Below, one piece after another: positions 8,756 to 63,786 of a stretch of DNA of 64,000 nt. Under the pieces are notes generated by a model that was given only the letters and a program-made list of their open reading frames with translations, was not told the DNA's origin and made no database searches. How positions within the stretch are numbered: position 1 is the stretch's first letter; the number at the start of each line of letters is the position of its first letter. Position numbers and translations under genes: made by a program. Source of the stretch: a virus. Its lineage: Duplodnaviria > Heunggongvirae > Uroviricota > Caudoviricetes. Location: positions 23,562-87,561 of the IMG/VR virus record IMGVR_UViG_3300046779_000230; one strand, given 5' to 3'.

Positions 8756-9361
8756 TTACCTAATAGAATTCTCCAAGAAGGCAAGAACTTTCGCTTGTTC
8801 CTCTAAGTTAGTGTTGTTAAACTCAGTAATATAGGACATCAGTTCAAAATTTGATAGCAAGTTACTATATTTAGTTTCTCTGCCTCTTAGGAATTGTTCG
8901 GACTGGTCTGAGCCACGATCCTTGTAGCGTTGCTCCAGTAGTTCTTTTGGAGCCTTGAGATACACAACAATCAACTCAGTGTTTGGCAAGTTCATACAGA
9001 ACTCCAAGAAAGATTGATTAAAGACTCGGTCACCTTCGAACAGGATGTTACAGTTGTTAGAAGCGATCCACTCTTGTAGTGGTGGTTGAACTGCCATGGA
9101 CAAGCGATCTGTACCAGCGAATAATTCACCTTCGTTGTACTTACCAAGGATGTACAAGTCATGCTCTTTATTATAGAGAGCAGACACTAACTTAGCAGGT
9201 TCAGTACCGATAAATTCTTTACCTTCCATGAACTTACGGAATAGCGTAGTCTTGCCTGTACCTGGACTTCCACCAACGGCAATGATCTTTCTAGTCTTGA
9301 CTTCGTTCTTGATCAACTTAACTTCGATTCGATCTGAAATACCAAATTTATCAATTAACAT
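8756..9361 (-). CDS. P-loop kinase-like NTPase (candidate DNA or nucleotide kinase of the modification cassette)
   Basis: The 201-aa product has the Walker A motif AVGGSPGTGKTTLF. Its start overlaps the upstream radical SAM gene by 7 nt. Confidence 0.55.
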   Translation of the reverse strand: MLIDKFGISDRIEVKLIKNEVKTRKIIAVGGSPGTGKTTLFRKFMEGKEFIGTEPAKLVSALYNKEHDLYILGKYNEGELFAGTDRLSMAVQPPLQEWIASNNCNILFEGDRVFNQSFLEFCMNLPNTELIVVYLKAPKELLEQRYKDRGSDQSEQFLRGRETKYSNLLSNFELMSYITEFNNTNLEEQAKVLAFLENSIR

Positions 9362-10785
9362 CTTACACCTATCATTCTCTTGTATTGTTGGAGTTTCATC
9401 TTGTTGATGGACGAAACATTGTATTTAGACTCTAGTTCATTATATCTCAGCTTTAAGATTTCGTCAATCTTAATTCCTAGATTTGCAACTGTCATGATTT
9501 GAAATTCTGCAATCTTGTTTATTGGGTCTCTACGAGACATTATAGAATTAGCGTACATGGAACATATAGTATAGTTAAGGTTCTGACTCTTTAATGTCCA
9601 TGTATTGTTGTCTGTTATTTCATATCCATAAATTTCTGGATTTAAACTAAATTCAGAACCATAGTCACCCTTGTTCTTTTTGAATAACATTAGTGGATAA
9701 ACACTTATATGGTCAACAGGATTATTTTTATCCATAATCCAATCATTGGTTTCTTCAAAATACTCTACGGTGTCATAAGGTAATCCATAGATCAAACCAA
9801 TACCTATGTTTACTTTACCATTCCACTTTTCTTTTAACCAAGACAATCTATCTTTGACTTTGTTCGGCGCGAGACTTTTACCAATGGCAATACCACTTTG
9901 CTTATTGAGCGTTTCAACTCCAAAGAAAGTGCCAACTAATCCAGCTTCTCGTAGCAAGTCAGCTTGATGTGGATACTTGTTTAACAAGTCTAGTCTAAGG
10001 TAACAAGAAAAGTTAATCTTGAAAGGCAGAGATGTGAACAGTTTGTGTATTGCTTCAATCTTGTCGTTGTCATCATTGAAGGTATCATCTGTTATGTAGT
10101 AGTTGGTACATCCAGTTGCTTCCCAAGTTTTTATCATGTCATCTCTGACTTCTTCGATGTCTCTTAAGTAAGTACCTTTCTTTTTACCAATCAAAGAATA
10201 CCCACAGAATTTACATTTGAAGATACACCCACGCGCCAACTCCAGCGGTAGAGACTCTCCGTCAAGAATAGAAAAGTCTTTTCTCCACCAATGAGTCTTG
10301 ATGTTATCCATCTTTGGCTCTGGGAATTGTTTGGAATCAAAAATCTTTGGTTGCTGTACACCATCTGCCACACCCTTTGTGTATTCAATGATAGCATCAT
10401 CTGCGTATCCTAGGATGTAAGTATCAATGCGATCATCAGAAGCCCACAAGGATCTAACACCACCATAGATCAACTGCACATTAAACTGTTTGATGTATTG
10501 AAATAGTTTGTCTACATCTGCTGGTGTCATGTGTGGAAATAGCGTTTGGTCTCCCCAGAAAAAGGTAGAAGAAAAACCAACCCATAATGTATTGTCACTG
10601 ATGTGAACACTCAATGCTTGTATGATTTCATCAACAGTAAAGTATTGAGTAAAGTCAATAACTCTAGATGTATAACCAGCGTTTTCAAGAGCAGAAGCTA
10701 TTCTGTAAGAACCCAAGTTTCTTTGGATCTGAGAATAGGTTTCTGGAGACGTTGGTCCAGCAGCAATAATAATGCAATCAATCAT
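9355..10785 (-). CDS. radical SAM enzyme with an N-terminal B12-binding-like (class B-type) domain
   Basis: ELARGCIFKCKFCGYS carries the CxxxCxxC motif. It follows a Rossmann-like N-terminal domain (MIDCIIIAAGP...LGSYRIASALENAGY). Confidence 0.8.
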   Translation of the reverse strand: MIDCIIIAAGPTSPETYSQIQRNLGSYRIASALENAGYTSRVIDFTQYFTVDEIIQALSVHISDNTLWVGFSSTFFWGDQTLFPHMTPADVDKLFQYIKQFNVQLIYGGVRSLWASDDRIDTYILGYADDAIIEYTKGVADGVQQPKIFDSKQFPEPKMDNIKTHWWRKDFSILDGESLPLELARGCIFKCKFCGYSLIGKKKGTYLRDIEEVRDDMIKTWEATGCTNYYITDDTFNDDNDKIEAIHKLFTSLPFKINFSCYLRLDLLNKYPHQADLLREAGLVGTFFGVETLNKQSGIAIGKSLAPNKVKDRLSWLKEKWNGKVNIGIGLIYGLPYDTVEYFEETNDWIMDKNNPVDHISVYPLMLFKKNKGDYGSEFSLNPEIYGYEITDNNTWTLKSQNLNYTICSMYANSIMSRRDPINKIAEFQIMTVANLGIKIDEILKLRYNELESKYNVSSINKMKLQQYKRMIGVRC

Positions 10786-12445: not shown

Positions 12446-13142
12446 GTTGATAATCTACAGCGCTTTTAATAGAGACTGCACGCAATTCCATTTTCAAGTC
12501 GCCATCAAGTTTAATGTATGTATTCATTGGAACTTCCATAGTTGGAAGAAACAATCCAGCACGTTGTGGAATATCGGCAGTAGAAGTAATTATACTACCA
12601 TTAGTCATTGTAGTCAAATATAATGGTCGTTTGCCATTACGGTAAACAGTTACCTCTTTGGTAGATGCAATAAGTTGACAAACAGCCATGGACATATTAC
12701 TGAACTCTTCTAGTGGACTTTTTGCGTGTAGCACCAATTCACTGTCGTTCTTTGTTTCAGTTTTATAACCGTACAACTCTTGCCACTTTTCTGGCAGTTC
12801 TTGGGTAATAACACCATTGTGAACAATAGCAACATTATCGTTACCCAACGGTTGGTTATATTCCAAGTCGCTAGTTGAATAACGGCAGTGTCCAATCATA
12901 TACAAGTTTCCATCTTCATTCAAGAATGATTTGAAGTTATCATTATGCATGTGTTTCTCAACGAATTGATCAGCTGGGATCGCTTCTTTGATTGTAACAA
13001 GGTTACCTTTATTCCAAGCAGGAATAAAAGAAATACCAGTGGCGTGCAAACCACGAATCTTTGATTCAACGAATACACGTTTTAAGGATTCAAAATCCTT
13101 CAGAGAAGGATTCTGTATAACTGCTCCGATAACGGCACACAT
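12432..13142 (-). CDS. stand-alone class-II (Ntn) glutamine amidotransferase domain
   Basis: The protein starts MCAVIGA, giving the nucleophile Cys2. It also has IGHCRYSTSD..NQP, VHNGVITQ and KNDSELV. At 236 aa it has no fused synthase domain. Confidence 0.8.
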   Translation of the reverse strand: MCAVIGAVIQNPSLKDFESLKRVFVESKIRGLHATGISFIPAWNKGNLVTIKEAIPADQFVEKHMHNDNFKSFLNEDGNLYMIGHCRYSTSDLEYNQPLGNDNVAIVHNGVITQELPEKWQELYGYKTETKNDSELVLHAKSPLEEFSNMSMAVCQLIASTKEVTVYRNGKRPLYLTTMTNGSIITSTADIPQRAGLFLPTMEVPMNTYIKLDGDLKMELRAVSIKSAVDYQHDIH

Positions 13143-14536
13143 TAGAAGAAACTTTCAAGTGAATTAGATTTATCTGACTCTGGGTGATACTTCAACAACA
13201 CTTCTGCGCCAAGTTTTTTCTCGCAGTAGTCATACCACTCTTGACTTTCCCACATACCAGCAGAAACACCATTCCAAAGATGACGCTCAGAGCCGTCTTC
13301 GTTTCGGTGACCTGCATGCTCTTTGTTCAAACGACGAGATTCAACAAACTCATAACGGCAGTCTTCATACTCTTTTGAACCAAGTTCAAGCATCTTTTCA
13401 CGGAAATAACAAACCAGTGAAATACGTTCGGCTTCTTCATCCAACAATTCAATTGGAGTGTTACCGTGCATAACTTCGTGGTTGTTGATCAACAGCAAGT
13501 CGCCTGGACGTACATTGACAGCAACGCGATACTCTGGAGCAATTAGATAACCACCCTTGTAATTGCCGTTGTTAGAAAGAACCAACAAGTTAGAAAGACC
13601 ACTATTCAAGTCGCCTGCATCAAAGTGTGCTGCAGTACGGAATGTTTTGTTAACAGTGATTGTAGTGAATGGAGTTTCTGGAACCAAGAATTGTGGATCA
13701 AGTTTCTTGGCAGCTTCCATTTGATTATTGTAACGCCATGGCATCAACTCTTTAAAACCTTTGGCAAGAGTCTGTAGGAATGGGAATGCCATCTCAAACT
13801 TCTCACGATTCTTTTCAGTATAAGAAGTTGCACGACCATAAGGGATACGTGGGTAACGATCAAACCAACCAGCAATACCAGAGAACACACCGTTGGCATA
13901 AGTTGTTTGACAAACATATTTCTGCACAACACGCTTGGCTTCGGCACGTTGTTCATCCAAACTCAATTTACGAGTACGCTCAACCCACTCATCAAAAGTG
14001 AAATTGTCCTTTTTAACCGCCTGAATACTCCAAACATTGTTCTTATTAGAAGGCTGTTCTTTCTTGTTGGCGTGTTGACGCTTTAGTTCTTCGATTGGAT
14101 CTTCACCAAAGATGTTGGCTTTGGGATTAGAAAAGTAATCAATCACATCGTACTCATACTCAGTGACCCACTCTCTGTTACCCAACTTGTCTTTTCGTGG
14201 ACCAGCTGCGATGCCACGGTTTTGAGTCTCAACAGCTGCTTCACGTAGCCCAACATATGCAGCCAACTGTTCTTCTTTTGAGAAGAAGTTCTTACGGAAC
14301 TTAAATGCAATACGCATTTCATCCGTACCTTTAGGGCAGCTGGAGCAGTCTTTGTCTGTGTCGCAAGATGCTTGTTGAGCGATATCGCAGTTTACTGGCA
14401 TGTAAACGTCGGCGTCATAATCAACTAGAATATCGTAATGTGATTCGTCTACAAACTGACCCAGAAGATGAGAACAGTCGTGCTTTTTATCAGCCACGAT
14501 AATTTTAACATTTCTACCTTCATCTATTTTACTCAT
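13142..14536 (-). CDS. 2OG-Fe(II) dioxygenase of the TET/JBP family
   Basis: FRTAAHFDAGDLNSGLSNLLVL (HxD..[ND].N.G), KGGYLIAPE, HEVMHGNTP and ERISLVCYF align with the catalytic-core strands of metazoan TET as I recall them (AHxHRDxHNxxNG; GGVAVAP; HATTP; RISLVFY). There is an N-terminal Cys cluster, NCDIAQQASCDTDKDCSSC. Confidence 0.75.
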   Translation of the reverse strand: MSKIDEGRNVKIIVADKKHDCSHLLGQFVDESHYDILVDYDADVYMPVNCDIAQQASCDTDKDCSSCPKGTDEMRIAFKFRKNFFSKEEQLAAYVGLREAAVETQNRGIAAGPRKDKLGNREWVTEYEYDVIDYFSNPKANIFGEDPIEELKRQHANKKEQPSNKNNVWSIQAVKKDNFTFDEWVERTRKLSLDEQRAEAKRVVQKYVCQTTYANGVFSGIAGWFDRYPRIPYGRATSYTEKNREKFEMAFPFLQTLAKGFKELMPWRYNNQMEAAKKLDPQFLVPETPFTTITVNKTFRTAAHFDAGDLNSGLSNLLVLSNNGNYKGGYLIAPEYRVAVNVRPGDLLLINNHEVMHGNTPIELLDEEAERISLVCYFREKMLELGSKEYEDCRYEFVESRRLNKEHAGHRNEDGSERHLWNGVSAGMWESQEWYDYCEKKLGAEVLLKYHPESDKSNSLESFF

Positions 14537-23470: not shown

Positions 23471-23679
23471 AGCGAGCGTGAAGGATAGCCAACAGCAAAG
23501 CCACTGGTGCCAATTTGGAAACTGCGAGAGGCTTTAGAACTCATTTTCTGAGTGGTGCGACGACGAGACTTTTTGGCTTTGACCACTTCAATCTGACCAC
23601 CACGAGCAAGGAATTGCTGTACAGCTTCAGATGTTTCTTCACGAACTTGTGATTTGGTTTTGTAGATAGTTGCTTGCAT
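23467..23679 (-). CDS. hypothetical small basic protein
   Basis: I moved the start to the ATG at 23679, which follows the strong RBS AAAGAGGA. The product contains FLARGGQIEVVKAKKSRRR. Confidence 0.45.
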   Translation of the reverse strand: MQATIYKTKSQVREETSEAVQQFLARGGQIEVVKAKKSRRRTTQKMSSKASRSFQIGTSGFAVGYPSRSL

Positions 23680-28276: not shown

Positions 28277-29734
28277 TTATTCAAATTTCAAAACATATCT
28301 ATTCTGCTCTAGCAAAGTCTTGTGATCAATCAATGCTAATTTAGAAAAGTCACTCAAGTAATTATTATACATCGACATTTGATTGGAGACAACTTTTTCT
28401 CCATGTGACTGCATAAAATTACTACTAATAGTATTCACATCAAACAAACCAAGACCATCCATAACTTGTATCCAGTTTGTTTCACTAAACATAGTCCAAT
28501 TACCAGAAAAGTACATTCTAGTTGGCATTGCACTCTTGAATGTTTCTAAGTTTTCTCTAATAAAATCTGTCTTGGTTATTTCGTTTTTCACTGTCTTCCA
28601 AAAATCACTATCTGACCGTTTTGTCATATAATGTAGTTGAACGAAATCAACAATATTATCAAATGAAGAAATAAACTCTTTATTGTAATGGTCAGAAGCC
28701 TTTCGGTTGACTACCCAATACTCAAAAGACTGAACAAACCCCATAGCTTGTAAAATAGAATTACCAATACTAGATGCTTCTAAAGGTTCAACGAACGATG
28801 CAGACAATCCAATAGAAAGACAATTATTAATCCAAAATCTATCTACTCTACCAGCTTCAAATTTAATATCTTTGGCAATATTAACTTGTTCGGTGTATAC
28901 AGATTGTACCTCATCATGTGCTTGAGATGAATTTATAAAATCATCACAGAATACATATCCATTACCATAACGACCACGTGTGGAAATTCTCCAATTCCAT
29001 CCAGAAGACAATGCTCTAGATAATGTATATGGAGATAACTGAGAGACATCATCAGTTGGGAATGCCAATGCATGATTCATTGGAAGATATTTCTTATAAG
29101 AAATCCATTTAGCTCCAAGTTTAGAAGCTAAGAATTTCTTAAATCCAGTGCTATCAATAAAGAAATCAGCATCGAATACTTCACCAGATTCAGAAACTAC
29201 AGAACCAATATCGCCATTCTCTAAGATATTTACATCTGTTAAAGTTGTCTTGACGATGTTAATATCGCGCTCTATACATTTCTTATGTAAGTATTCATTT
29301 AACTTAAATGTATTAAAATGGTATTGGAATGTTGTGTTAATTCCACCAACCATTCTAACCATATCTGTGCCAACGGTAACATCAACAAGTTGAATACCTT
29401 TGTGTATACAAGTCTTTTCTAATAAGTGGTCTTCTTGGGTTTGCCAAAAAGGTTGACCAATCGCATGAAAATAGCTTTTACCATCTCCATTCCAATTCTC
29501 AAACTTGATGCCTTTCTTCAAGGCACCATCAGTCTCGCGAACTAATTCTCGATTGTCGAGACCTACATAATCACAGAACTGAGACCAATGCTCAGTCGAT
29601 CCCTCTCCAACCCCAATAATACCAATATCTGTAGATTCGATAATGGTTATGGGGTAGAGTGGATATGCTTTACGTATAATCAAGGCAGAAATCAGACCTG
29701 CAGTCCCGCCACCTACGATTACAAATTTCTTCAT
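28277..29734 (-). CDS. flavin-dependent (tryptophan-type) halogenase
   Basis: It has VGGGTAGL (GxGxxG), IGVGEGS, LKKGIKFENW (region of the catalytic Lys) and SSGWNWRIS (WxWxI motif). Confidence 0.8.
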   Translation of the reverse strand: MKKFVIVGGGTAGLISALIIRKAYPLYPITIIESTDIGIIGVGEGSTEHWSQFCDYVGLDNRELVRETDGALKKGIKFENWNGDGKSYFHAIGQPFWQTQEDHLLEKTCIHKGIQLVDVTVGTDMVRMVGGINTTFQYHFNTFKLNEYLHKKCIERDINIVKTTLTDVNILENGDIGSVVSESGEVFDADFFIDSTGFKKFLASKLGAKWISYKKYLPMNHALAFPTDDVSQLSPYTLSRALSSGWNWRISTRGRYGNGYVFCDDFINSSQAHDEVQSVYTEQVNIAKDIKFEAGRVDRFWINNCLSIGLSASFVEPLEASSIGNSILQAMGFVQSFEYWVVNRKASDHYNKEFISSFDNIVDFVQLHYMTKRSDSDFWKTVKNEITKTDFIRENLETFKSAMPTRMYFSGNWTMFSETNWIQVMDGLGLFDVNTISSNFMQSHGEKVVSNQMSMYNNYLSDFSKLALIDHKTLLEQNRYVLKFE

Positions 29735-31593: not shown

Positions 31594-32390
31594 TATTTAC
31601 CTACAACAACTTGACCACGGAAGTCGAATGGAATAACAACAGTGTTTACTTTACCGTTCTTAATACCTTCGGCGATATCAGCTTGAGCCTTTGCTTGCAT
31701 ATAAGCAATTGATTGAGCGCCTTGATTAGCCAACGCTTGCATACGACGAGCCTCAGCTTCAGCAGTCTTTACTTCAACTTCTTTTTGCTTGAATTCATTC
31801 TTTGAACGAACCAATGCGTTGGCAGATTCAACGACGCTATCAGCAGGCACTACGTTACGTACAAGAACCTGAGTAATAGTGATACTACCATCCAGCTTTT
31901 CGTCAGTCAGTGTCTTTTGAATTTGTTCTTTGATAGACAATTCCATTGCTTGACGAGCATCAGCCATTTCCAACGCTTCGTATTTACGCGCTTCTTTGTA
32001 GATAGCGTTACGTGCAGCATTGTGGATATAGTTAAACATCAAGTAAGTATCGCCATCGTGTTTAACGTGGAATGCCTTTGACTTGGTGTTATAAAGTTCA
32101 GCAACCTGAGACTGATTCAAGCTGTAGATAACGATGGCATCAAAGTCTTTCATTGTGCTGTTATCTTTGGCAATTGGAGTCATGTCGTCCAATTTCACGT
32201 TAACATCTTTGACAGGGAATGTCAGAACATCACCAACCAAGACTTGATTGAAAGAACCTGGAAGCAATTCCTCATTCTTAACTTGCTTATCAAAACCAAC
32301 TCGCAAACCAACTTCACCAGTTTCAATACGGGTGCAACCAGTCAGCAATACAGCGCCAGCCAAAATAGCCATAGAGACAAGACGTTTCAT
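31593..32390 (-). CDS. SPFH/band-7 (prohibitin-like) lipoprotein
   Basis: It has a signal peptide with the lipobox LLTGC. This is followed by ETGEVGLRVGF and a long coiled C-terminal region typical of SPFH proteins. Confidence 0.75.
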   Translation of the reverse strand: MKRLVSMAILAGAVLLTGCTRIETGEVGLRVGFDKQVKNEELLPGSFNQVLVGDVLTFPVKDVNVKLDDMTPIAKDNSTMKDFDAIVIYSLNQSQVAELYNTKSKAFHVKHDGDTYLMFNYIHNAARNAIYKEARKYEALEMADARQAMELSIKEQIQKTLTDEKLDGSITITQVLVRNVVPADSVVESANALVRSKNEFKQKEVEVKTAEAEARRMQALANQGAQSIAYMQAKAQADIAEGIKNGKVNTVVIPFDFRGQVVVGK

Positions 32391-58100: not shown

Positions 58101-58116
58101 TTATTTATTATTTATC
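58101..58116 (-). promoter_or_regulatory. late promoter motif GATAAATAATAAATAA
   Basis: This 16-mer is identical to the one at 48073-48088. It lies 24 nt upstream of the gp13 ATG and overlaps the stop of 58112-59149. Confidence 0.55.
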
Positions 58117-59149
58117 CAGTAAAAATGTTCTGATAGTCGTCTAGTAAGAACAACCACTCAGGCTCATGGATAGAAAATGTTGAAATCTTTTTTGGTTTAT
58201 TTCTAGCATAGTGTTCCATACCTCGATCCGCTAGAAAGTCTCTCATCTGCCATCTGTGTGTAGAAGAGTCGCCTTTAACTTTTGTAAATGGTTCGTTGGT
58301 GCTAATAGCCCACTGCTGAAATTCAATAGAATCAAAAAACCCATGAATCATTTTAGCTTTTTCTGGACTAAGAAGAATCTTGTGTTCGTATATCGCTGTA
58401 TACCAGTCTAGGTTAAAAATGCAATACCATCTAAGGTCTGCAATAGTTTCTATTTTTCTTGGTGAAGTTTGAATAATTGGGTTTAAAAATTCAAGCAAGT
58501 CTTCATTAACATTACCGATATAAGACTCATATATCGTTTCTTTGTTACCTAGTGTATGATGAAACATAGCCTTATCACCAGTAGCAAACATATCATCAGT
58601 TGGTCCAAACAATTGATTGCCACACATACCACTAACAAAGATAGAATCATCAGTATTGTGAAAGCTAAAGTTATTTCTGGCTCCAACTCTAATATCAAAT
58701 AAGAAATCGTTCTTTATCTTAGAGTCAAAAAGATCGCCAGATTCTATGATAGAATTATATGTACCGAACACTCTTACTTGATCTTTATCTACAGCAAACT
58801 CTTTTAAAATGTAAAGAATATATGTACTGTCGATGCCACCAGACCACATAACATTAATTTTCTTACCAGTAGATAGAAGTTCTTTAGCTCGACGCTCTGC
58901 AACTTCATGAAAGCTAGTGTTATAGTTTTCTACTCGTTTTGGGATTGGATGAAGGTTTGGAGTTATATCGAGAAAGTGTTTCAGGTTTCCAGTCCTATCA
59001 TAAACAGCATTATGCTTGTTTAGACCGAACCACTCATAACTCTCGAATACATCTCTTGTATTGGCTAAGAATGGTGTTGACTCTATTGTTTCTCGACTTC
59101 CAGTTAGAAGTTCTGATATTAGTTGTGGGTTATAATATAAAATAGACAT
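58112..59149 (-). CDS. PP-loop ATP pyrophosphatase (asparagine-synthetase-domain-like adenylating enzyme)
   Basis: INVMWSGGIDSTYILY carries the SGGxDS PP-loop. At 345 aa it has no glutaminase domain. Confidence 0.7.
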   Translation of the reverse strand: MSILYYNPQLISELLTGSRETIESTPFLANTRDVFESYEWFGLNKHNAVYDRTGNLKHFLDITPNLHPIPKRVENYNTSFHEVAERRAKELLSTGKKINVMWSGGIDSTYILYILKEFAVDKDQVRVFGTYNSIIESGDLFDSKIKNDFLFDIRVGARNNFSFHNTDDSIFVSGMCGNQLFGPTDDMFATGDKAMFHHTLGNKETIYESYIGNVNEDLLEFLNPIIQTSPRKIETIADLRWYCIFNLDWYTAIYEHKILLSPEKAKMIHGFFDSIEFQQWAISTNEPFTKVKGDSSTHRWQMRDFLADRGMEHYARNKPKKISTFSIHEPEWLFLLDDYQNIFTG

Positions 59150-59168: not shown

Positions 59169-59184
59169 GGGAGCCGAAGCTCCC
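59169..59184 (-). terminator. UUCG-tetraloop hairpin (weak terminator candidate)
   Basis: The hairpin is GGGAGC-UUCG-GCUCCC followed by UUGAUUCC. Confidence 0.4.
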
Positions 59185-59189
59185 CTTTA

Positions 59190-60137
59190 TCATTGCAATT
59201 TAATTTTTTCTACTAATCCAGGTGAGAAGTAGTCTTGGAATTTATCATATACTGTAGAAGTGATTTCTCTAAACTTAGATTCTTCTTCTTCACTCATCTT
59301 GACAACTTGAATGTCATTTTGTTTACATTGTTCAAGAATATTTGGGATATCAGCAACAGACTCTTTACGCTCTTGACGCGCTGCGTTAAATGCAGCAGTA
59401 GTCATAATCTTCTGAGTCTTTTTATCAAATTGCTTAAAGAAGTCTTGATTAACAATAATAGAAGTTAAGAACAAGCTATGTGATGTTTCGTTAACTATCT
59501 TGAAAGACTTATATTGATCTAATGGGAAAACACGAACGTATGTAGACTCACCTGCAGCAATCTCGCCTTTGTCTGCATACTGGTTCATTTCTTCCAAAGT
59601 GATATCTTCGCGTGGAATAGAACCAAGAGCCTTAAATGTTTCAACGGCAACTGGAGAACGAGAAGTTCTAACCACTTTACCTTTCCATGCATCTACAGTG
59701 TTTGCAGCAAATGTAGATGGAACAATACGGTAACCACCAGAGTATGTAAATGACATAGCTTTAATGTTGGAATTCTTAGAAACCCCAGCCAATAGTTCTG
59801 TGCCAATTTCACCTTCTAGAACACGGTCAGCGTGTTCATGATCTTTGAACAAAAACGGCAGATCAAATGCATGTAGATCTTTGTTGTAGTCACCAAGCCA
59901 AGTAGTGTAGATGTGAGACATCTCAATCTTACCTGTATTGATTAAATCCATAAGATCGTATTTTGTTACTTTCTTACCATCGTTATATTTTTCAGCATAG
60001 TCAGAAAGAGACAAAACTTCGATGTCAAACGCACCGTCCGTTTTCTCGTTAACTTCTTTTGCAAATCGTTCAGCTACCTTCAAAAACAAGCCGATTGGCT
60101 CGTGGGCGATAACCCATTTGACATGTTTAGTAGTCAT
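59190..60137 (-). CDS. TRAP-type (DctP-family) solute-binding protein homolog without a signal peptide
   Basis: Three blocks match the DctP pattern: FDLPFLFKDHEHADRVLEGEIG, GKVVRTSRSP..ETFKALGS and GEIAAGES. The N-terminus MTTKHVKWVIAHEP lacks a hydrophobic leader. Confidence 0.7.
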   Translation of the reverse strand: MTTKHVKWVIAHEPIGLFLKVAERFAKEVNEKTDGAFDIEVLSLSDYAEKYNDGKKVTKYDLMDLINTGKIEMSHIYTTWLGDYNKDLHAFDLPFLFKDHEHADRVLEGEIGTELLAGVSKNSNIKAMSFTYSGGYRIVPSTFAANTVDAWKGKVVRTSRSPVAVETFKALGSIPREDITLEEMNQYADKGEIAAGESTYVRVFPLDQYKSFKIVNETSHSLFLTSIIVNQDFFKQFDKKTQKIMTTAAFNAARQERKESVADIPNILEQCKQNDIQVVKMSEEEESKFREITSTVYDKFQDYFSPGLVEKIKLQ

Positions 60138-60436
60138 TTTAGTTCCTCTAAAACTTTGGTTTCAAAAAACCATTTTTCTGTTTGTGATTTTAAATCTATT
60201 TGCCTTCTTAAGAAGGGAGTTCTATTATTTATAAGAATCCTAATAATACTCTCTTCTGGAATTTCTTCTTTATTTAGGATCTGGGATGTCGGTATAACCG
60301 TATCTCTGTAACCATATTCCTTCGCAGAAGAGTCGTAAAAAAAGTAGTCCTTGACCGTGAATCCCTCACATCCACTTAGCGGAGATCTAGGGTACTGATT
60401 TATCTCGAATAGAAATTCATTAATATATGGTGTCAT
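60134..60436 (-). CDS. hypothetical protein translationally coupled to the rSAM gene and the SBP-like gene
   Basis: The 100-aa ORF has 4-nt overlaps at both ends. Confidence 0.45.
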   Translation of the reverse strand: MTPYINEFLFEINQYPRSPLSGCEGFTVKDYFFYDSSAKEYGYRDTVIPTSQILNKEEIPEESIIRILINNRTPFLRRQIDLKSQTEKWFFETKVLEELK

Positions 60437-61806
60437 ACTGATACGATCGGAATTACTTTTTTCTTGGTTTCGACTTTTCCATTAATCATCCAGAAAATGT
60501 CTTTTCTGTCTTGTCTTAGTGGTCCATCGATATAAACTGGAATGTGTCCTGTTAAAATTTCAATAGCTGCACAAAAAATGACAATGTTGTCGCTAAATGA
60601 GTTATCGCATGTGGCTTCCCATAATGGACCAGTTAAAAAGAAACAAGCACCTTTACAGATGTGTAACACAGGGCACTTAGAACATTCTTCTCGATCACTC
60701 CAATGCGTTCCTGTTTTTATCTCAATATTTTTAAGATCTTTAACATTACCCAAGTGGTGTGAAATTCCAGATGGATTATGCGAAACTGTAGATACATTCT
60801 GGCAAGTTAAGACATTACCCTTTAAGTCTATAGCAATATTTTCAGACTTGTCCATACCACATTTCTGAGATAAGGTTTCTTTTCTAACTCCAGTTTCCAG
60901 AGACTTAATAAAGTTACTTATTTTTGTTTGTATTGTGCTGTATCGAGTAACACTGTCTGCGCGAAGTTCGTCGAATGTAAATTTTCTATAGTTAATATGA
61001 GATTCATCATTCATTAAAGAGTTAGCAGTACCACCCTCGTCGTATGCGTCAATAAAAGTGCCTTCGCCGATTGATAGGTACTTTACATATTCTTCACCAA
61101 GTTCTTTTCTGATTAACTCTTCGAAAAATAATTGAATGTTTTTACGGCTAATATTTTTGTTAGTTATCATAGAATTGAAACTAACACGACCTAGAGGAGC
61201 TAAAGTTTTATATGCGTAGATGATACCTTCTCTACTGGATGGGTCATCTAGTGGGTCTGGACCGCGAATAAATTGACCAACCGCATCATGAGAAATACCA
61301 ACAGTAAACCTTAAGTTGTTTAACCAATCAACCTTTTCTTTGTCTAGTAGACTACCATTAGTGATAATAGAAAATTCTGAGTTTGGATACTTAGCGCGAA
61401 TTTCTTCAGCAAGAGGTTTCAAGGTCTTCCAATATACTAGAGGTTCACCACCCCAAAATTCAAAGTATCTATTCGAACCCTTACCGTCTTCTCCACCATC
61501 AAACCATGATGGTATTTGTTCTACAAATTCTTGAATATCATTTGGGTTTGTAGAATCTGCGTGTGGCACAAATCTCTGATTGCAGTAATCACACTCGAAA
61601 TTACAAGAAAGACCAAGCTGTATCTTAACAGTTTTTGGTGCCTTGCCAATTTCTAGTTTTTTCTGAGATTGTGGGAGATTGTTTATTCTAGTTTCGATGA
61701 CAGCGGTGCCATCTTCCCATGTTAGGGTGCTAAACGTAGAATTATAGATCAATTTTTTAGTTAGACCGTCTTTTGGGTTAACTGATGTTATTACAAATTG
61801 TGACAT
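60433..61806 (-). CDS. radical SAM enzyme with a C-terminal SPASM domain (peptide/protein maturase type)
   Basis: GLSCNFECDYCNQ carries CxxxCxxC. The SPASM pattern is CGMDKSENIAIDLKGNVLTC (C-x13-G-x4-C), then CSKCPVLHICKGAC (CX2CX5CX3C), plus a downstream Cys. Confidence 0.85.
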   Translation of the reverse strand: MSQFVITSVNPKDGLTKKLIYNSTFSTLTWEDGTAVIETRINNLPQSQKKLEIGKAPKTVKIQLGLSCNFECDYCNQRFVPHADSTNPNDIQEFVEQIPSWFDGGEDGKGSNRYFEFWGGEPLVYWKTLKPLAEEIRAKYPNSEFSIITNGSLLDKEKVDWLNNLRFTVGISHDAVGQFIRGPDPLDDPSSREGIIYAYKTLAPLGRVSFNSMITNKNISRKNIQLFFEELIRKELGEEYVKYLSIGEGTFIDAYDEGGTANSLMNDESHINYRKFTFDELRADSVTRYSTIQTKISNFIKSLETGVRKETLSQKCGMDKSENIAIDLKGNVLTCQNVSTVSHNPSGISHHLGNVKDLKNIEIKTGTHWSDREECSKCPVLHICKGACFFLTGPLWEATCDNSFSDNIVIFCAAIEILTGHIPVYIDGPLRQDRKDIFWMINGKVETKKKVIPIVSV

Positions 61807-61824
61807 TATATACCTTAAATGAAA

Positions 61825-61845
61825 TTCTGGGGACTAGCCCCAGAA
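61825..61845 (-). terminator. hairpin between the late motif and the rSAM start (terminator or 5'-leader structure)
   Basis: The hairpin is UUCUGGGG-CUAGU-CCCCAGAA followed by UUUCAUUU. Confidence 0.5.
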
Positions 61846-61846
61846 G

Positions 61847-61854
61847 TATTTATC
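61847..61854 (-). promoter_or_regulatory. late promoter motif GATAAATA upstream of the rSAM operon
   Basis: The motif lies 40 nt upstream of the ATG at 61806 and overlaps the stop of 61853-62632. Confidence 0.45.
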
Positions 61855-62632
61855 AAGAAATTGTTATGGTAAAATCAGCTATACCTGTGTATTTTCTATG
61901 ACCAGCCTTAACTCTCACTAAGTCTCCAACATCCATACCAGTAGTTAAAAGTTTAAACGAACCAGAACCATTGGTTAATGGCACTCTAAGTTTATTTGGA
62001 ATTCCATAAACTTGCTCTAAATAAACTTCCTTGACAGTAGGGCTAGAAGAAACATCAATAGTAATACTAGAGTCTACTCCGACAGAAGACTGTGTAGAAG
62101 ATAATGTCACTGGAGCTATTAGATCTCTAGTGAAACGAACTGTTTCGCTTGTGACATGTTGAGCAGATGGACCTTCTACGATATAATCTACATCATCGCT
62201 ATCTTTGATAACATATGTAAAGTCCGTGAAATCTCCCTCAGAATCTTCAACGAAAATTCCAAACGGTGTGTAGAAAAAACCAGATTCCTGAGAATACCCT
62301 TGTTTCTTAGAGACTAGTGTTTCTGCCAATAAATCTATGACCATTGGCGCGCAAACTGGATGGTGTGTATTATTCCCATCAGAATCTAATAATGGATAAC
62401 AACTTTCTACAATAGTCCACACAGACTGATCACAGAAACCTTTTGATGCCTTTAATGTTTGTAAAGACATTTCACACCAAAATATTTCTTTGTACTCTCC
62501 ATCTTTATTCACAGAGACTTTAACTTCTAGTGTTTCAGGTTGTATATTCAAAAATATCTTGGGTGGTGTTAGGTTTTCACCCGCTTCTTTATTGAAGATT
62601 GTGTTTGGCGTTTTCGATCTAATAATTCTCAT
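61853..62632 (-). CDS. hypothetical protein, possibly virion-associated (beta-rich C-terminal domain)
   Basis: The 259-aa ORF lies between the fibre-like gene and the rSAM operon. No motif was recognised. Confidence 0.4.
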   Translation of the reverse strand: MRIIRSKTPNTIFNKEAGENLTPPKIFLNIQPETLEVKVSVNKDGEYKEIFWCEMSLQTLKASKGFCDQSVWTIVESCYPLLDSDGNNTHHPVCAPMVIDLLAETLVSKKQGYSQESGFFYTPFGIFVEDSEGDFTDFTYVIKDSDDVDYIVEGPSAQHVTSETVRFTRDLIAPVTLSSTQSSVGVDSSITIDVSSSPTVKEVYLEQVYGIPNKLRVPLTNGSGSFKLLTTGMDVGDLVRVKAGHRKYTGIADFTITIS

Positions 62633-62640
62633 AGATTACC

Positions 62641-63786
62641 TTAACAGTTGCAGTTGCAGTTACAATTATGTGCACGAAGAACCATGTTAGTTCCTTGTCT
62701 AATTGTATCATACCAAGTTGTGTCATGTCCTGGGGGATTACGTGAAGCATTACCCATACAGTTACCTACAGCTCGACCACCACCACCGTCAACGAAGAAA
62801 CCATAGTTACCTAAGTTGTTAACGAATTGAGATAGGTGACCTGGACGACCTTGTACGTTACCCCATGGAGTCACTTCAGCATAGAATGCATATCCAACGT
62901 TAGTTACGCTAACTGCTCCAGTGTTACCTTGAACAGATGTAACTGGGACTGAGACTACAACTGCGCCAGTGTTACCTTGAACAGATGTAACATGAGCAGA
63001 AACTGTTGGATTACCAGCAACACCATCTCCGTTAGAAACTGTAATACCACCACCAGCAACAATAGTTCTTGTTGCCATAGAACCAGTACCAGTTCTTGAA
63101 AGCATACCAGTTGTTGTCAAACCAGAAAGAGCAGACAAGTCAGAGTCGAATGGCTGAACGTCAGTACCGATTGTTAGACCAAGAGTGGCACGAGCAGTTA
63201 TTGCATCGCCATCGTCTAACAGAGTTCTGGCATATGGCGTCAAGCTAGTAGTATCGGCAGTGCCAAGACCTGTGTAATAAGGCAATGTATTTGCTGCAGA
63301 TGTTGTTGCAGCTAGGGCATCTAACTCTAGATTCCATGCTTGTACATCAGAACCAATGGCTAGACCCAAGTTAGTTCTAGCGCCAGCTGATGTAGATGAG
63401 CCAGTACCACCGTCTGCGATTGCCAAGTCTGTGATACCTTGGATTAAACCACTGGTAATCGCTGCTTCACCAGAATGTTTACCACTAAAATCTGCAGCTG
63501 TGATTACGTTGGCTTCAAAGTTACCTGAAGCATCACGAACTACTGCAGAGCTTTTATCAGCACCAGCTGGTAGCAATACAGATGCACTATAACCATCTAG
63601 TAAGTCGGCATCTAAGCCAGAACCGCTGCCGTCAACTGTTTTAAGTTTAGTTAAGATATCAGCTGCATTATAATCAACAGCTGTTAATTTTGTGGCTAAT
63701 TCGTTGTTCAGGTTACTAAAGTTTGCATCGACTTCAGCGTTAGTCAGCGGACTTCCTTTAGTACCTCTTAATGTAATAACTGCCAT
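62641..63786 (-). CDS. tail-fibre-like protein ending in (Asn-Cys)4
   Basis: The N-terminus [24 protein letters not shown] is a common phage-fibre N-terminal motif. SVQGNTGAV fibre repeats occur twice. The region between is Gly/Thr/Ala-rich and beta-type. The C-terminus is [11 protein letters not shown]. Confidence 0.75.
62644..62667 (-). repeat. codon-level tandem repeat encoding NCNCNCNC at the extreme C-terminus
   Basis: The minus strand reads AAT TGT AAC TGC AAC TGC AAC TGT TAA. Confidence 0.9.
62918..62991 (-). repeat. 26-bp direct repeat at a 48-nt period
   Basis: ccagtgttaccttgaacagatgtaac occurs at 62918-62943 and again at 62966-62991. It encodes [11 protein letters not shown] twice. 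Confidence 0.9.

Follow-up and report, generated by a model that had tools for sequence, protein, structure and literature searches.

What might a bacteriophage gain from the binding protein of a bacterial uptake system if that protein is never exported? The question is raised by a gene for a protein of the DctP family, whose characterised members serve transporters of the tripartite ATP-independent periplasmic (TRAP) type, in a 64,000-nucleotide stretch of tailed-phage DNA (Caudoviricetes; positions 23,562 to 87,561 of IMG/VR record IMGVR_UViG_3300046779_000230), hereafter the window. The encoded DctP-like protein is probably an intracellular binder of some organic acid, with no role in nutrient uptake. 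It belongs to a large, previously undescribed DctP subfamily whose genes in phages mostly stand beside a gene for an AsnB-type synthetase. The features on which its reading depends are:

59190–60137, minus strand: DctP-family binding protein, leaderless, 315 amino acids (aa), supported by its open reading frame (ORF), profile matches, structure model and alignment.
60144–60148, minus strand: GAGGA, a Shine-Dalgarno sequence seen by direct reading, 6 nt ahead of the ATG (60137).
60134–60436, minus strand: orf100, a conserved protein of 95–118 aa without family assignment.

The ORF and its conservation are far beyond chance. Its ATG shares bases with the TGA that ends orf100 (ATGA), an arrangement suggestive of translational coupling. 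In the same frame a stop codon lies only 9 codons before the ATG, with no ATG, GTG or TTG between the two, so there is no room for a signal peptide, and upstream extension of the ORF is ruled out; this stop, the Shine-Dalgarno sequence and the ATGA overlap fix the start. A preliminary description, made from the sequence, had proposed a leaderless cytoplasmic protein and had looked to an upstream in-frame start as the means by which a leader might still be added; that start does not exist. The first beta-strand of the mature DctP fold begins at residue 4 of an AlphaFold2 model and no hydrophobic segment was found in the protein, so that the absence of a signal peptide or lipobox stands. Likewise borne out is the remark that no TRAP membrane subunits lie nearby: no polytopic membrane protein is encoded on the coding strand across the 64-kb window, and a Pfam scan of its other ORFs found no DctM or DctQ. 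A sequence resembling a T4 late promoter, TATAAATA, occurs at 60226–60233, inside orf100 and 89 nt upstream of the DctP-like start, but with two copies in the window it is not above chance and was set aside.

The protein matches the DctP profile PF03480 over residues 20–300 (E 3.7e-43; 148.3 bits against a cut-off of 23.4) and NCBIfam NF037995, TRAP_S1 (101.8 bits, above the cut-off of 50), while for the narrower TIGR00787 its 113.5 bits fall under the cut-off of 175.05. The AlphaFold2 model, built with 146 homologues (pLDDT 97.1, pTM 0.93), predicts the two-lobed type II binding-protein fold with its long spanning helix. Foldseek matched it to the solved TRAP binding proteins 4nq8, 4pdd, 4xeq and 8te9 with TM-scores of 0.86–0.88, and it superposes better on ligand-bound closed forms than on apo SiaP (0.78).

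The preliminary description had also recognised DctP-typical sequence blocks, among them an Arg-containing strand, GKVVRTSRS. The PF03480 match upholds this, as does the alignment of R157, the Arg of that strand, with the conserved Arg of 4p47 and 4xfe. When aligned with SiaP (in a numbering that reproduces the published residues), R157 corresponds to R147, R137 to R127, S198 to N187 and H220 to H209; pocket residues were placed by this kind of sequence alignment. Across the family, where 96.8% of members have it, this Arg acts as the selectivity filter for carboxylates (PMC4646407). In the subfamily R157 is kept by 95% of viral, 70% of other leaderless and, in contrast to the family-wide figure, 49% of secreted members. 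The ligand is presumably a carboxylate. Nearly invariant are W8, H12, P14, P94, S133–G135, E197, R202, H220, E256 and R257, of which H12, S133–G135, E197, R202 and H220 are predicted to line the pocket. Leaderless and secreted members have a common signature that is atypical of TRAP receptors, WV[LI]AHEP, LPFLFxDHxHA, FTYSGG[YF]R, E[ST]TYxR and HSLFLT, which in the window protein reads WVIAHEP, LPFLFKDHEHA, FTYSGGYR, ESTYVR and HSLFLT.

We found relatives in 2053 protein clusters at E <1e-5 in a collection of 5.8 billion proteins; the best 120 of these 2053 matches are nearly all phage-type, with lengths of 313–316 aa. Relatives occur on 506 IMG/VR contigs. The 50,697 GenBank phage records hold none above 26% identity (six weak matches lie at or below that value), the 10-kb region has no nucleotide match in cultured phages, and a literature search found no paper on a phage DctP-family gene, a cytoplasmic DctP protein or a leaderless DctP lineage. 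The 59 cellular loci, drawn from contigs of one genome per species, are overwhelmingly from Bdellovibrionota, with some from Myxococcota and Elusimicrobia; it is mainly in predatory bacteria that cellular relatives occur. A leader is missing from every one of the 85 viral homologues examined. Among representatives at 50% identity, leaderless members have 5–8 residues ahead of the first strand, and secreted members 25–45 hydrophobic residues. The closest signal-bearing relative is 46% identical among these representatives and ~50% identical in the cellular genome loci, mostly of Bdellovibrionota. A neighbour-joining tree places the secreted forms, mostly of Bdellovibrionota, at the base and the leaderless forms, from phages and some Bdellovibrionota chromosomes, in one derived region; since it carries no support values, a single loss of the leader is only suggestive. 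The DctP-like gene is the most conserved and slowest-evolving of its cassette, with pN of 0.12–0.24 against 0.21–0.54 for its neighbours (synonymous sites are saturated), and it retains 75–77% identity where the flanking radical SAM (rSAM) enzyme and synthetase have only 40–62%. The subfamily is under strong purifying selection.

Whether the missing leader might be an artefact can be judged from other phage proteins. Locus L006 (L-numbers denote the loci compared) encodes three TctC-like proteins with textbook signal peptides, and the DctP-like protein between them has none. In L126 and the near-identical L131, genes for DctQ (PF04290, E 2e-20), DctM (PF06808, E 7e-54) and a 362-aa DctP protein with a signal peptide (PF03480, E 2e-30) are directly followed by the leaderless DctP-like gene, which is itself preceded by three AsnB-like paralogs; a BLASTP comparison of the two DctP-family proteins of L126 detected no similarity. 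The window supplies an export control of its own:

31596–32390, minus strand: lipoprotein with a lipobox, 265 aa, beginning MKRLVSMAILAGAVLLTGC.

These phages thus add leaders where export is wanted. The missing leader is a conserved property and not an annotation artefact. L126 1563–8948 is in its own right a complete phage-encoded TRAP transporter beside a leaderless paralog.

Linkage to the membrane subunits of TRAP transporters is almost never seen. In the 97 loci of the set L001–L099, for which membrane proteins were searched against Pfam with one representative per cluster, there is no DctQ or DctM; L126 and L131 are the only viral loci with DctQM beside a subfamily member, leaving 83 of the 85 without. 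The uniform absence of leaders from the viral copies, the signal peptides on other phage proteins and this rarity of DctQM support the preliminary description in placing the protein in the cytoplasm and denying it a part in transport. The cytoplasmic location, which we infer from the sequences, and the lack of a transport role can be considered well supported. One of the roles suggested in that earlier interpretation, a partnership with the rSAM enzyme, fares less well, and points of gene linkage suggest a different partner:

58112–59149, minus strand: stand-alone AsnB-type PP-loop synthetase, 345 aa, motif WSGGIDST, without a glutaminase domain.
59169–59184, no strand assigned: palindromic GC-rich perfect hairpin GGGAGCCGAAGCTCCC, within the 40 nt that separate the DctP-like gene from the synthetase gene.

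The synthetase gene starts 40 nt downstream of the DctP-like gene; the hairpin between them could be an RNA stabiliser or attenuator. A gene of this PP-loop family is immediately next to the DctP-like gene in 60 of the 85 viral loci, within three genes in 70 and within five in 74, and it occurs near 6 of 19 leaderless cellular copies as against none of 32 secreted copies. The rSAM gene, in comparison, is within three genes in only 45 of the 85 viral loci, so the conserved partner would be the AsnB-like synthetase in place of the rSAM enzyme. Two viral layouts recur: type A, with the order rSAM, orf100, DctP-like, synthetase; and type B, in which c13, a synthetase of 415–435 aa, sometimes a TctC gene, the DctP-like gene and a gene for a DUF2061-like protein follow one another. 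The PP-loop proteins of the two types are only ~20% identical, so the linkage has survived both deep divergence and rearrangement.

Sequence profiles recognise only the SGGxDS PP-loop in the synthetase. In a structural search with a model built from an alignment of database homologues, AsnB-type matches outrank those to GMP synthetase, NAD synthetase and LarE, which cover only the 130-residue core, and from this ranking the partner appears to be an AsnB-type synthetase domain that stands alone, the N-terminal glutaminase-type domain being absent. To our knowledge, every characterised member of the AsnB group turns a carboxylate into an acyl-adenylate and then into an amide, lactam or hydroxamate. 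A binder that clamps carboxylates and an enzyme that adenylates them would make a chemically coherent pair.

Building on the family, fold, missing leader, conservation and gene linkage observed above, we propose that the DctP-like protein is a cytoplasmic carboxylate binder that feeds the adjacent AsnB-type amidoligase in a two-gene module, an explanation to which we give an even chance. The binder would descend from a TRAP-type DctP receptor that kept the two-lobed fold and the Arg pair but lost its export signal and its link to DctQM. An organic acid, imported in some relatives by a TRAP, tripartite tricarboxylate (TTT) or major facilitator superfamily (MFS) system encoded beside the module, would be captured in the cytoplasm by the binding protein, which would hold it or present it to the synthetase in a physical or functional hand-over. 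The synthetase would convert the carboxylate through an acyl-adenylate into an amide, lactam or similar product; the separate DctP-like protein may supply it with substrate binding in trans. Because the locus sits in the variable 'host recognition cluster' that runs from VrlC to the neck genes and was described in pelagimyophages (PMC7029224), the product might serve to alter virions or the surface of the cell.

Several points weigh against this proposal. The evidence for a partnership of binder and synthetase is the adjacency of their genes, 11 of the 85 viral loci have no AsnB-like gene within five genes, and in the window the DctP-like gene is coupled to orf100 and the rSAM gene, yet separated from the synthetase gene by the 40-nt spacer with its hairpin. 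The synthetase resembles AsnB-type enzymes in structure only, with 10–15% identity and Foldseek TM-scores of 0.35–0.41. In the binder the equivalent of SiaP N187 is a Ser, and an additional Arg, R202, is invariant in the subfamily, as are several His residues, for which reasons the ligand or the chemistry may differ from that of classical TRAP ligands. The window itself encodes no importer. Finally, in type-A phages all four genes may act on the same fibre tail.

Importer genes do accompany other members. Besides L126 and L131, genes for TctA, TctB or TctC-like proteins are found within five genes of the leaderless copy in 12 viral loci, bringing loci with an importer part at that distance to 14 of 85, and an MFS gene is equally close in six Bdellovibrionota loci. 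The presence of TRAP, TTT and MFS importers beside the pair suggests an order of importer, cytoplasmic binder and synthetase. Phage contigs L139, L155, L146/L148, L064 and L006 carry TctA (PF01970, E up to 7e-140), TctB and TctC-like proteins with signal peptides; such parts of tripartite tricarboxylate transporters seem to be undescribed in phages.

The neighborhood of the cellular members was also examined. Leaderless chromosomal members occur in two settings, one with the PP-loop family together with BKACE, SDR, AMP-ligase and carrier genes (L042–L044, L084), the other beside an MFS transporter. Secreted members have an AMP-dependent ligase within five genes in 10 of 32 cases, and a phosphopantetheine carrier, an MBOAT acyltransferase, a membrane-anchored 348-aa protein and an NMT1-type ABC system in five to six loci each, a layout that resembles a Dlt-like cluster. 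These Dlt-like clusters, sometimes with a sulfatase-family enzyme, are on Bdellovibrionota contigs from metagenome-assembled genomes (L039, L051–L055, L065–L072, L086), and no DctQM was found near the secreted members in them. Small proteins of AspH-like or cupin type recur beside the leaderless DctP-like gene in both phages and Bdellovibrionota (L006 7970–8569 and 9031–9588, L049 7385–7999, L145 9744–10370); one from L006 belongs to Pfam Asp_Arg_Hydrox, the others were assigned by eye from an HxD...H pattern, and a Pfam search of two of these AspH-like or cupin-type proteins gave no match. Type-B loci often have beside the DctP-like gene, usually just downstream, a two-helix membrane protein of 76–93 aa with the motif ...KVxTWRxxxT...HERxWN (L011, L026, L028, L029, L033, L038, L106, L112–L114, L121, L140), which we take to be the DUF2061-like protein of that layout.

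On the other side of the DctP-like gene from the synthetase lie the rSAM gene and its associates. The minus-strand order in the window is fibre-like, orf259, rSAM/SPASM, orf100, DctP-like, 345-aa PP-loop synthetase and gp13, with these features upstream of orf100:

60433–61806, minus strand: radical SAM enzyme of 457 aa with the motif CNFECDYC and, at its C-terminus, a SPASM/twitch domain, overlapping orf100.
61825–61845, minus strand: terminator-like hairpin upstream of the rSAM gene.
61853–62632, minus strand: orf259 (cluster c10), a conserved gene flanked by the fibre-like and rSAM genes.
62641–63786, minus strand: tail-fibre-like protein (orf381), 381 aa, C-terminus NCNCNCNC.

The hairpin at 61825–61845 may mark the start of a transcription unit that runs from the rSAM gene through orf100 and the DctP-like gene to the synthetase gene. 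The rSAM enzyme matches phrog_1802 (E 4e-64), and its best NCBIfam match, the ranthipeptide maturase PapB, is far under cut-off, which leaves a generic rSAM/SPASM protein. Searches of Pfam, NCBIfam and PHROG gave nothing for orf100, orf259, c13/c17 and the AsnB-like protein beyond the PP-loop motif. In type-A loci orf100 is always immediately upstream of the DctP-like gene, and it is present in the rSAM-less L033 and L038 as well; it lies within three genes in 47 of the 85 viral loci. None of the 19 leaderless cellular loci has the rSAM gene, and the DctP-like gene does not co-occur obligately with an rSAM maturase and precursor.

The rSAM enzyme has a plausible substrate of its own, because proteins with at least three consecutive Asn-Cys pairs co-vary with its gene: among 86 viral loci they are found in 34 of the 47 that bear rSAM and in none of the 39 that do not. 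The carriers are the fibre-like c4 family, including orf381 of the window, or a 122-aa Cys/Asn-rich protein, and the tail-fibre-like protein ending in NCNCNCNC is a candidate rSAM/SPASM substrate. As an observation in itself, this suggests a radical-SAM maturase that cross-links the Cys/Asn repeat tails of a virion fibre (L009–L155 and the window). With (Asn-Cys)n proteins the likelier substrates, and with 40 viral loci that have the DctP-like and synthetase genes but no rSAM gene, the case for coupling the DctP-like protein to the rSAM enzyme, as the preliminary description had it, is weakened.

A partnership of that kind would have the DctP-like protein and orf100 bind or present the rSAM substrate, for example the (Asn-Cys)n tail of the fibre, within a four-gene maturation system for virion proteins in which the AsnB-like enzyme serves as a cyclase or amidase of the lasso-peptide type. 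AsnB homologues are known as peptide cyclases of lasso-peptide pathways. ATGA overlaps join the rSAM, orf100 and DctP-like genes in the window, about half of the viral loci have the order rSAM, orf100, DctP-like, synthetase, the (Asn-Cys)n proteins follow the rSAM gene, and the cassette lies between fibre-like and neck genes in the host recognition cluster (PMC7029224). It nevertheless looks doubtful to us, for rSAM and (Asn-Cys)n are both missing from 40 of the 85 viral loci and from every leaderless cellular locus (orf100 being missing as well, save in L033 and L038), the AsnB-like gene is retained in rSAM-less loci, including those of 6 of 19 leaderless cellular copies, L023 and L136 have the rSAM gene on the far side of the synthetase, and the rSAM enzyme changes two to three times as fast as the DctP-like protein, which would be unexpected if the latter were its dedicated partner. 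Somewhat easier to entertain, though still unlikely, is that binder and synthetase form the cytoplasmic front end of a Dlt-like surface-decoration pathway, common to Bdellovibrionota and aquatic T4-like phages, in which a scarce organic (amino) acid would be imported by a TRAP, TTT or MFS system, trapped in the cytoplasm by the binder, tailored by BKACE, SDR and AsnB-like enzymes, loaded on a carrier by an AMP-ligase and transferred to an envelope polymer by an MBOAT protein. The secreted paralogs of the subfamily would act at that polymer, and phages would carry the module in their host recognition cluster to re-decorate the surface of the infected cell or their own fibres; if this were true, a TRAP binding protein would for the first time have been recruited as a subunit that captures substrate inside the cell.

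The remaining explanations dispense with a partner. That phages and Bdellovibrionota chromosomes alike pair the gene almost constantly with one enzyme family speaks against a stand-alone cytoplasmic sponge or sensor, a role that the preliminary description had also offered. Such a protein would sequester a host metabolite or signal with no hand-over to an enzyme, for instance to starve a host pathway or a defence system; a metabolic role is favored on account of this pairing. Sponges are established in phages, the window encodes a protein with an Acb2/Tad1 hairpin domain, and a high-affinity binder fold, a cytoplasmic location, very strong conservation and the 11 loci with no synthetase nearby would all suit such a role. 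The gene, however, stands in the late structural region and not among early anti-defence genes, PADLOC gives no match for its product, and the recurrent neighbours are BKACE, SDR, AMP-ligase, carrier protein, AspH-like oxygenases and importers, so that we consider a sponge improbable. We judge no more favorably the possibility that the binding-protein fold has itself turned enzyme and acts on the bound acid through His, Ser, Glu and Arg residues that do not vary. H12, H102 (without variation in alignment A1), S133, E197, R202, H220, E256 and R257 are conserved far above what is usual for binders, R157, unlike R202, can be dispensed with in half of the secreted members, and MqnA/MqnD, THI5, HisG and cyclohexadienyl dehydratase are precedents of the general fold; against these, there is no recognisable catalytic motif, the model is a standard closed TRAP binding protein, and secreted members have the same invariant residues, which fits a common ligand equally. 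The explanation that its database name ('TRAP-type C4-dicarboxylate transport system substrate-binding protein') invites is an ordinary auxiliary metabolic gene, in which a periplasmic TRAP receptor with unrecognised export or a mis-called start boosts dicarboxylate uptake through the DctQM of the host. It agrees with the intact fold and Arg pair, with the DctQM genes of two viral loci and with the precedent of phage PstS (PMC12379486), but not with a start that cannot be extended and viral copies that are leaderless in 85 of 85 cases. Moreover, the DctQM-bearing loci encode a separate DctP with a signal peptide, the nearest signal-bearing relatives (46–~50% identical) lie beside no DctQM and in 10 of 32 cases near an AMP-dependent ligase, and the 5.8 billion proteins included no close host-like homologue, the best 120 of the 2053 matches being nearly all phage-type. 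The sequences thus argue that uptake is largely refuted, and we regard it as highly improbable.

Set against known systems, the cytoplasmic binder proposed here has partial parallels. The TRAP binding proteins SiaP, DctP and IseP have the same profile family, fold and mature length, and the equivalents of SiaP R127, R147 and H209 are kept; the phage protein differs from them in having no signal peptide, no adjacent DctQM, a Ser for N187, an AsnB-like pairing and the invariant set of its own subfamily (H12, S133–G135, R202 and others). The PstS of cyanophages and pelagimyophages is likewise a transporter binding protein from variable regions of marine T4-like phages, but it is a close host copy, with a structural TM-score of 0.98 to the host protein (PMC12379486). 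PstS is taken to act in the periplasm with the host permease, whereas the DctP-like protein lacks both a leader and a close counterpart in hosts and is paired with an enzyme. Orphan 'Bug'/TctC proteins such as AdpC also have no membrane partners encoded and are often found beside enzymes for carboxylates (PMC5812351). These belong to another family and are still exported periplasmic receptors, and the TctC-like neighbours in phages, unlike the DctP-like protein, still have signal peptides. MqnA/MqnD, THI5/NMT1, HisG and the effector domains of LysR proteins put the binding-protein fold to intracellular use, in handling ligands or in catalysis. None of them is in the DctP family, and no sequence relation to them was found, the DctP-like protein having Pfam matches to DctP only. 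We know of no case that pairs a cytoplasmic protein of binding-protein fold with an AsnB-type synthetase. That partner has in common with AsnB, beta-lactam synthetase, carbapenam synthetase and TsnB9 the synthetase-domain fold and the SGGxDS PP-loop, but lacks all of the N-terminal glutaminase-type domain, a part that helps beta-lactam synthetase and CarA to hold the substrate.

The window is part of the genome of a T4-like myovirus from a marine or freshwater setting, with portal, gp23, sheath, gp13, gp14, gp15 and TerL genes and a GC content of ~39%; the best matches of its TerL, ~50–52% identical, are from Methylophilales phage Melnitz and cyanophages. PADLOC found no match for orf100 or the synthetase, as for the DctP-like protein, and for the rSAM enzyme only a generic viperin-like radical SAM core. 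Elsewhere in the window are a second radical SAM protein of 476 aa (9355–10785, minus strand), a Tet/JBP 2OG-Fe oxygenase (13142–14536, minus strand) and an ORF with the 'amino acid:DNA transferase' (ADDT) domain PF18724, which together look like a pathway for thymidine or cytosine hypermodification. The Acb2/Tad1 hairpin domain is matched by a window ORF with E 2.4e-20 (PF24729) and belongs to a family of anti-defence cyclic-nucleotide sponges. Among the replication genes lies one further enzyme gene:

28277–29734, minus strand: flavin-dependent protein of the tryptophan-halogenase family (PF04820, E 8e-99).

What is new here is a lineage of TRAP receptors that has turned intracellular and is coupled to an enzyme. 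Thousands of its copies in metagenomes are labelled as TRAP C4-dicarboxylate substrate-binding proteins, and viral ecology would read them as auxiliary genes for nutrient uptake, which would be wrong for this lineage. The proteins are small, soluble and confidently modelled, which makes ligand screens and enzyme assays feasible. For transporter biology they provide a natural case of a TRAP receptor on the cytoplasmic side, and for phage biology an unexplored metabolic cassette, found in none of the cultured phage genomes searched, that aquatic T4-like phages widely carry in their host-recognition region.

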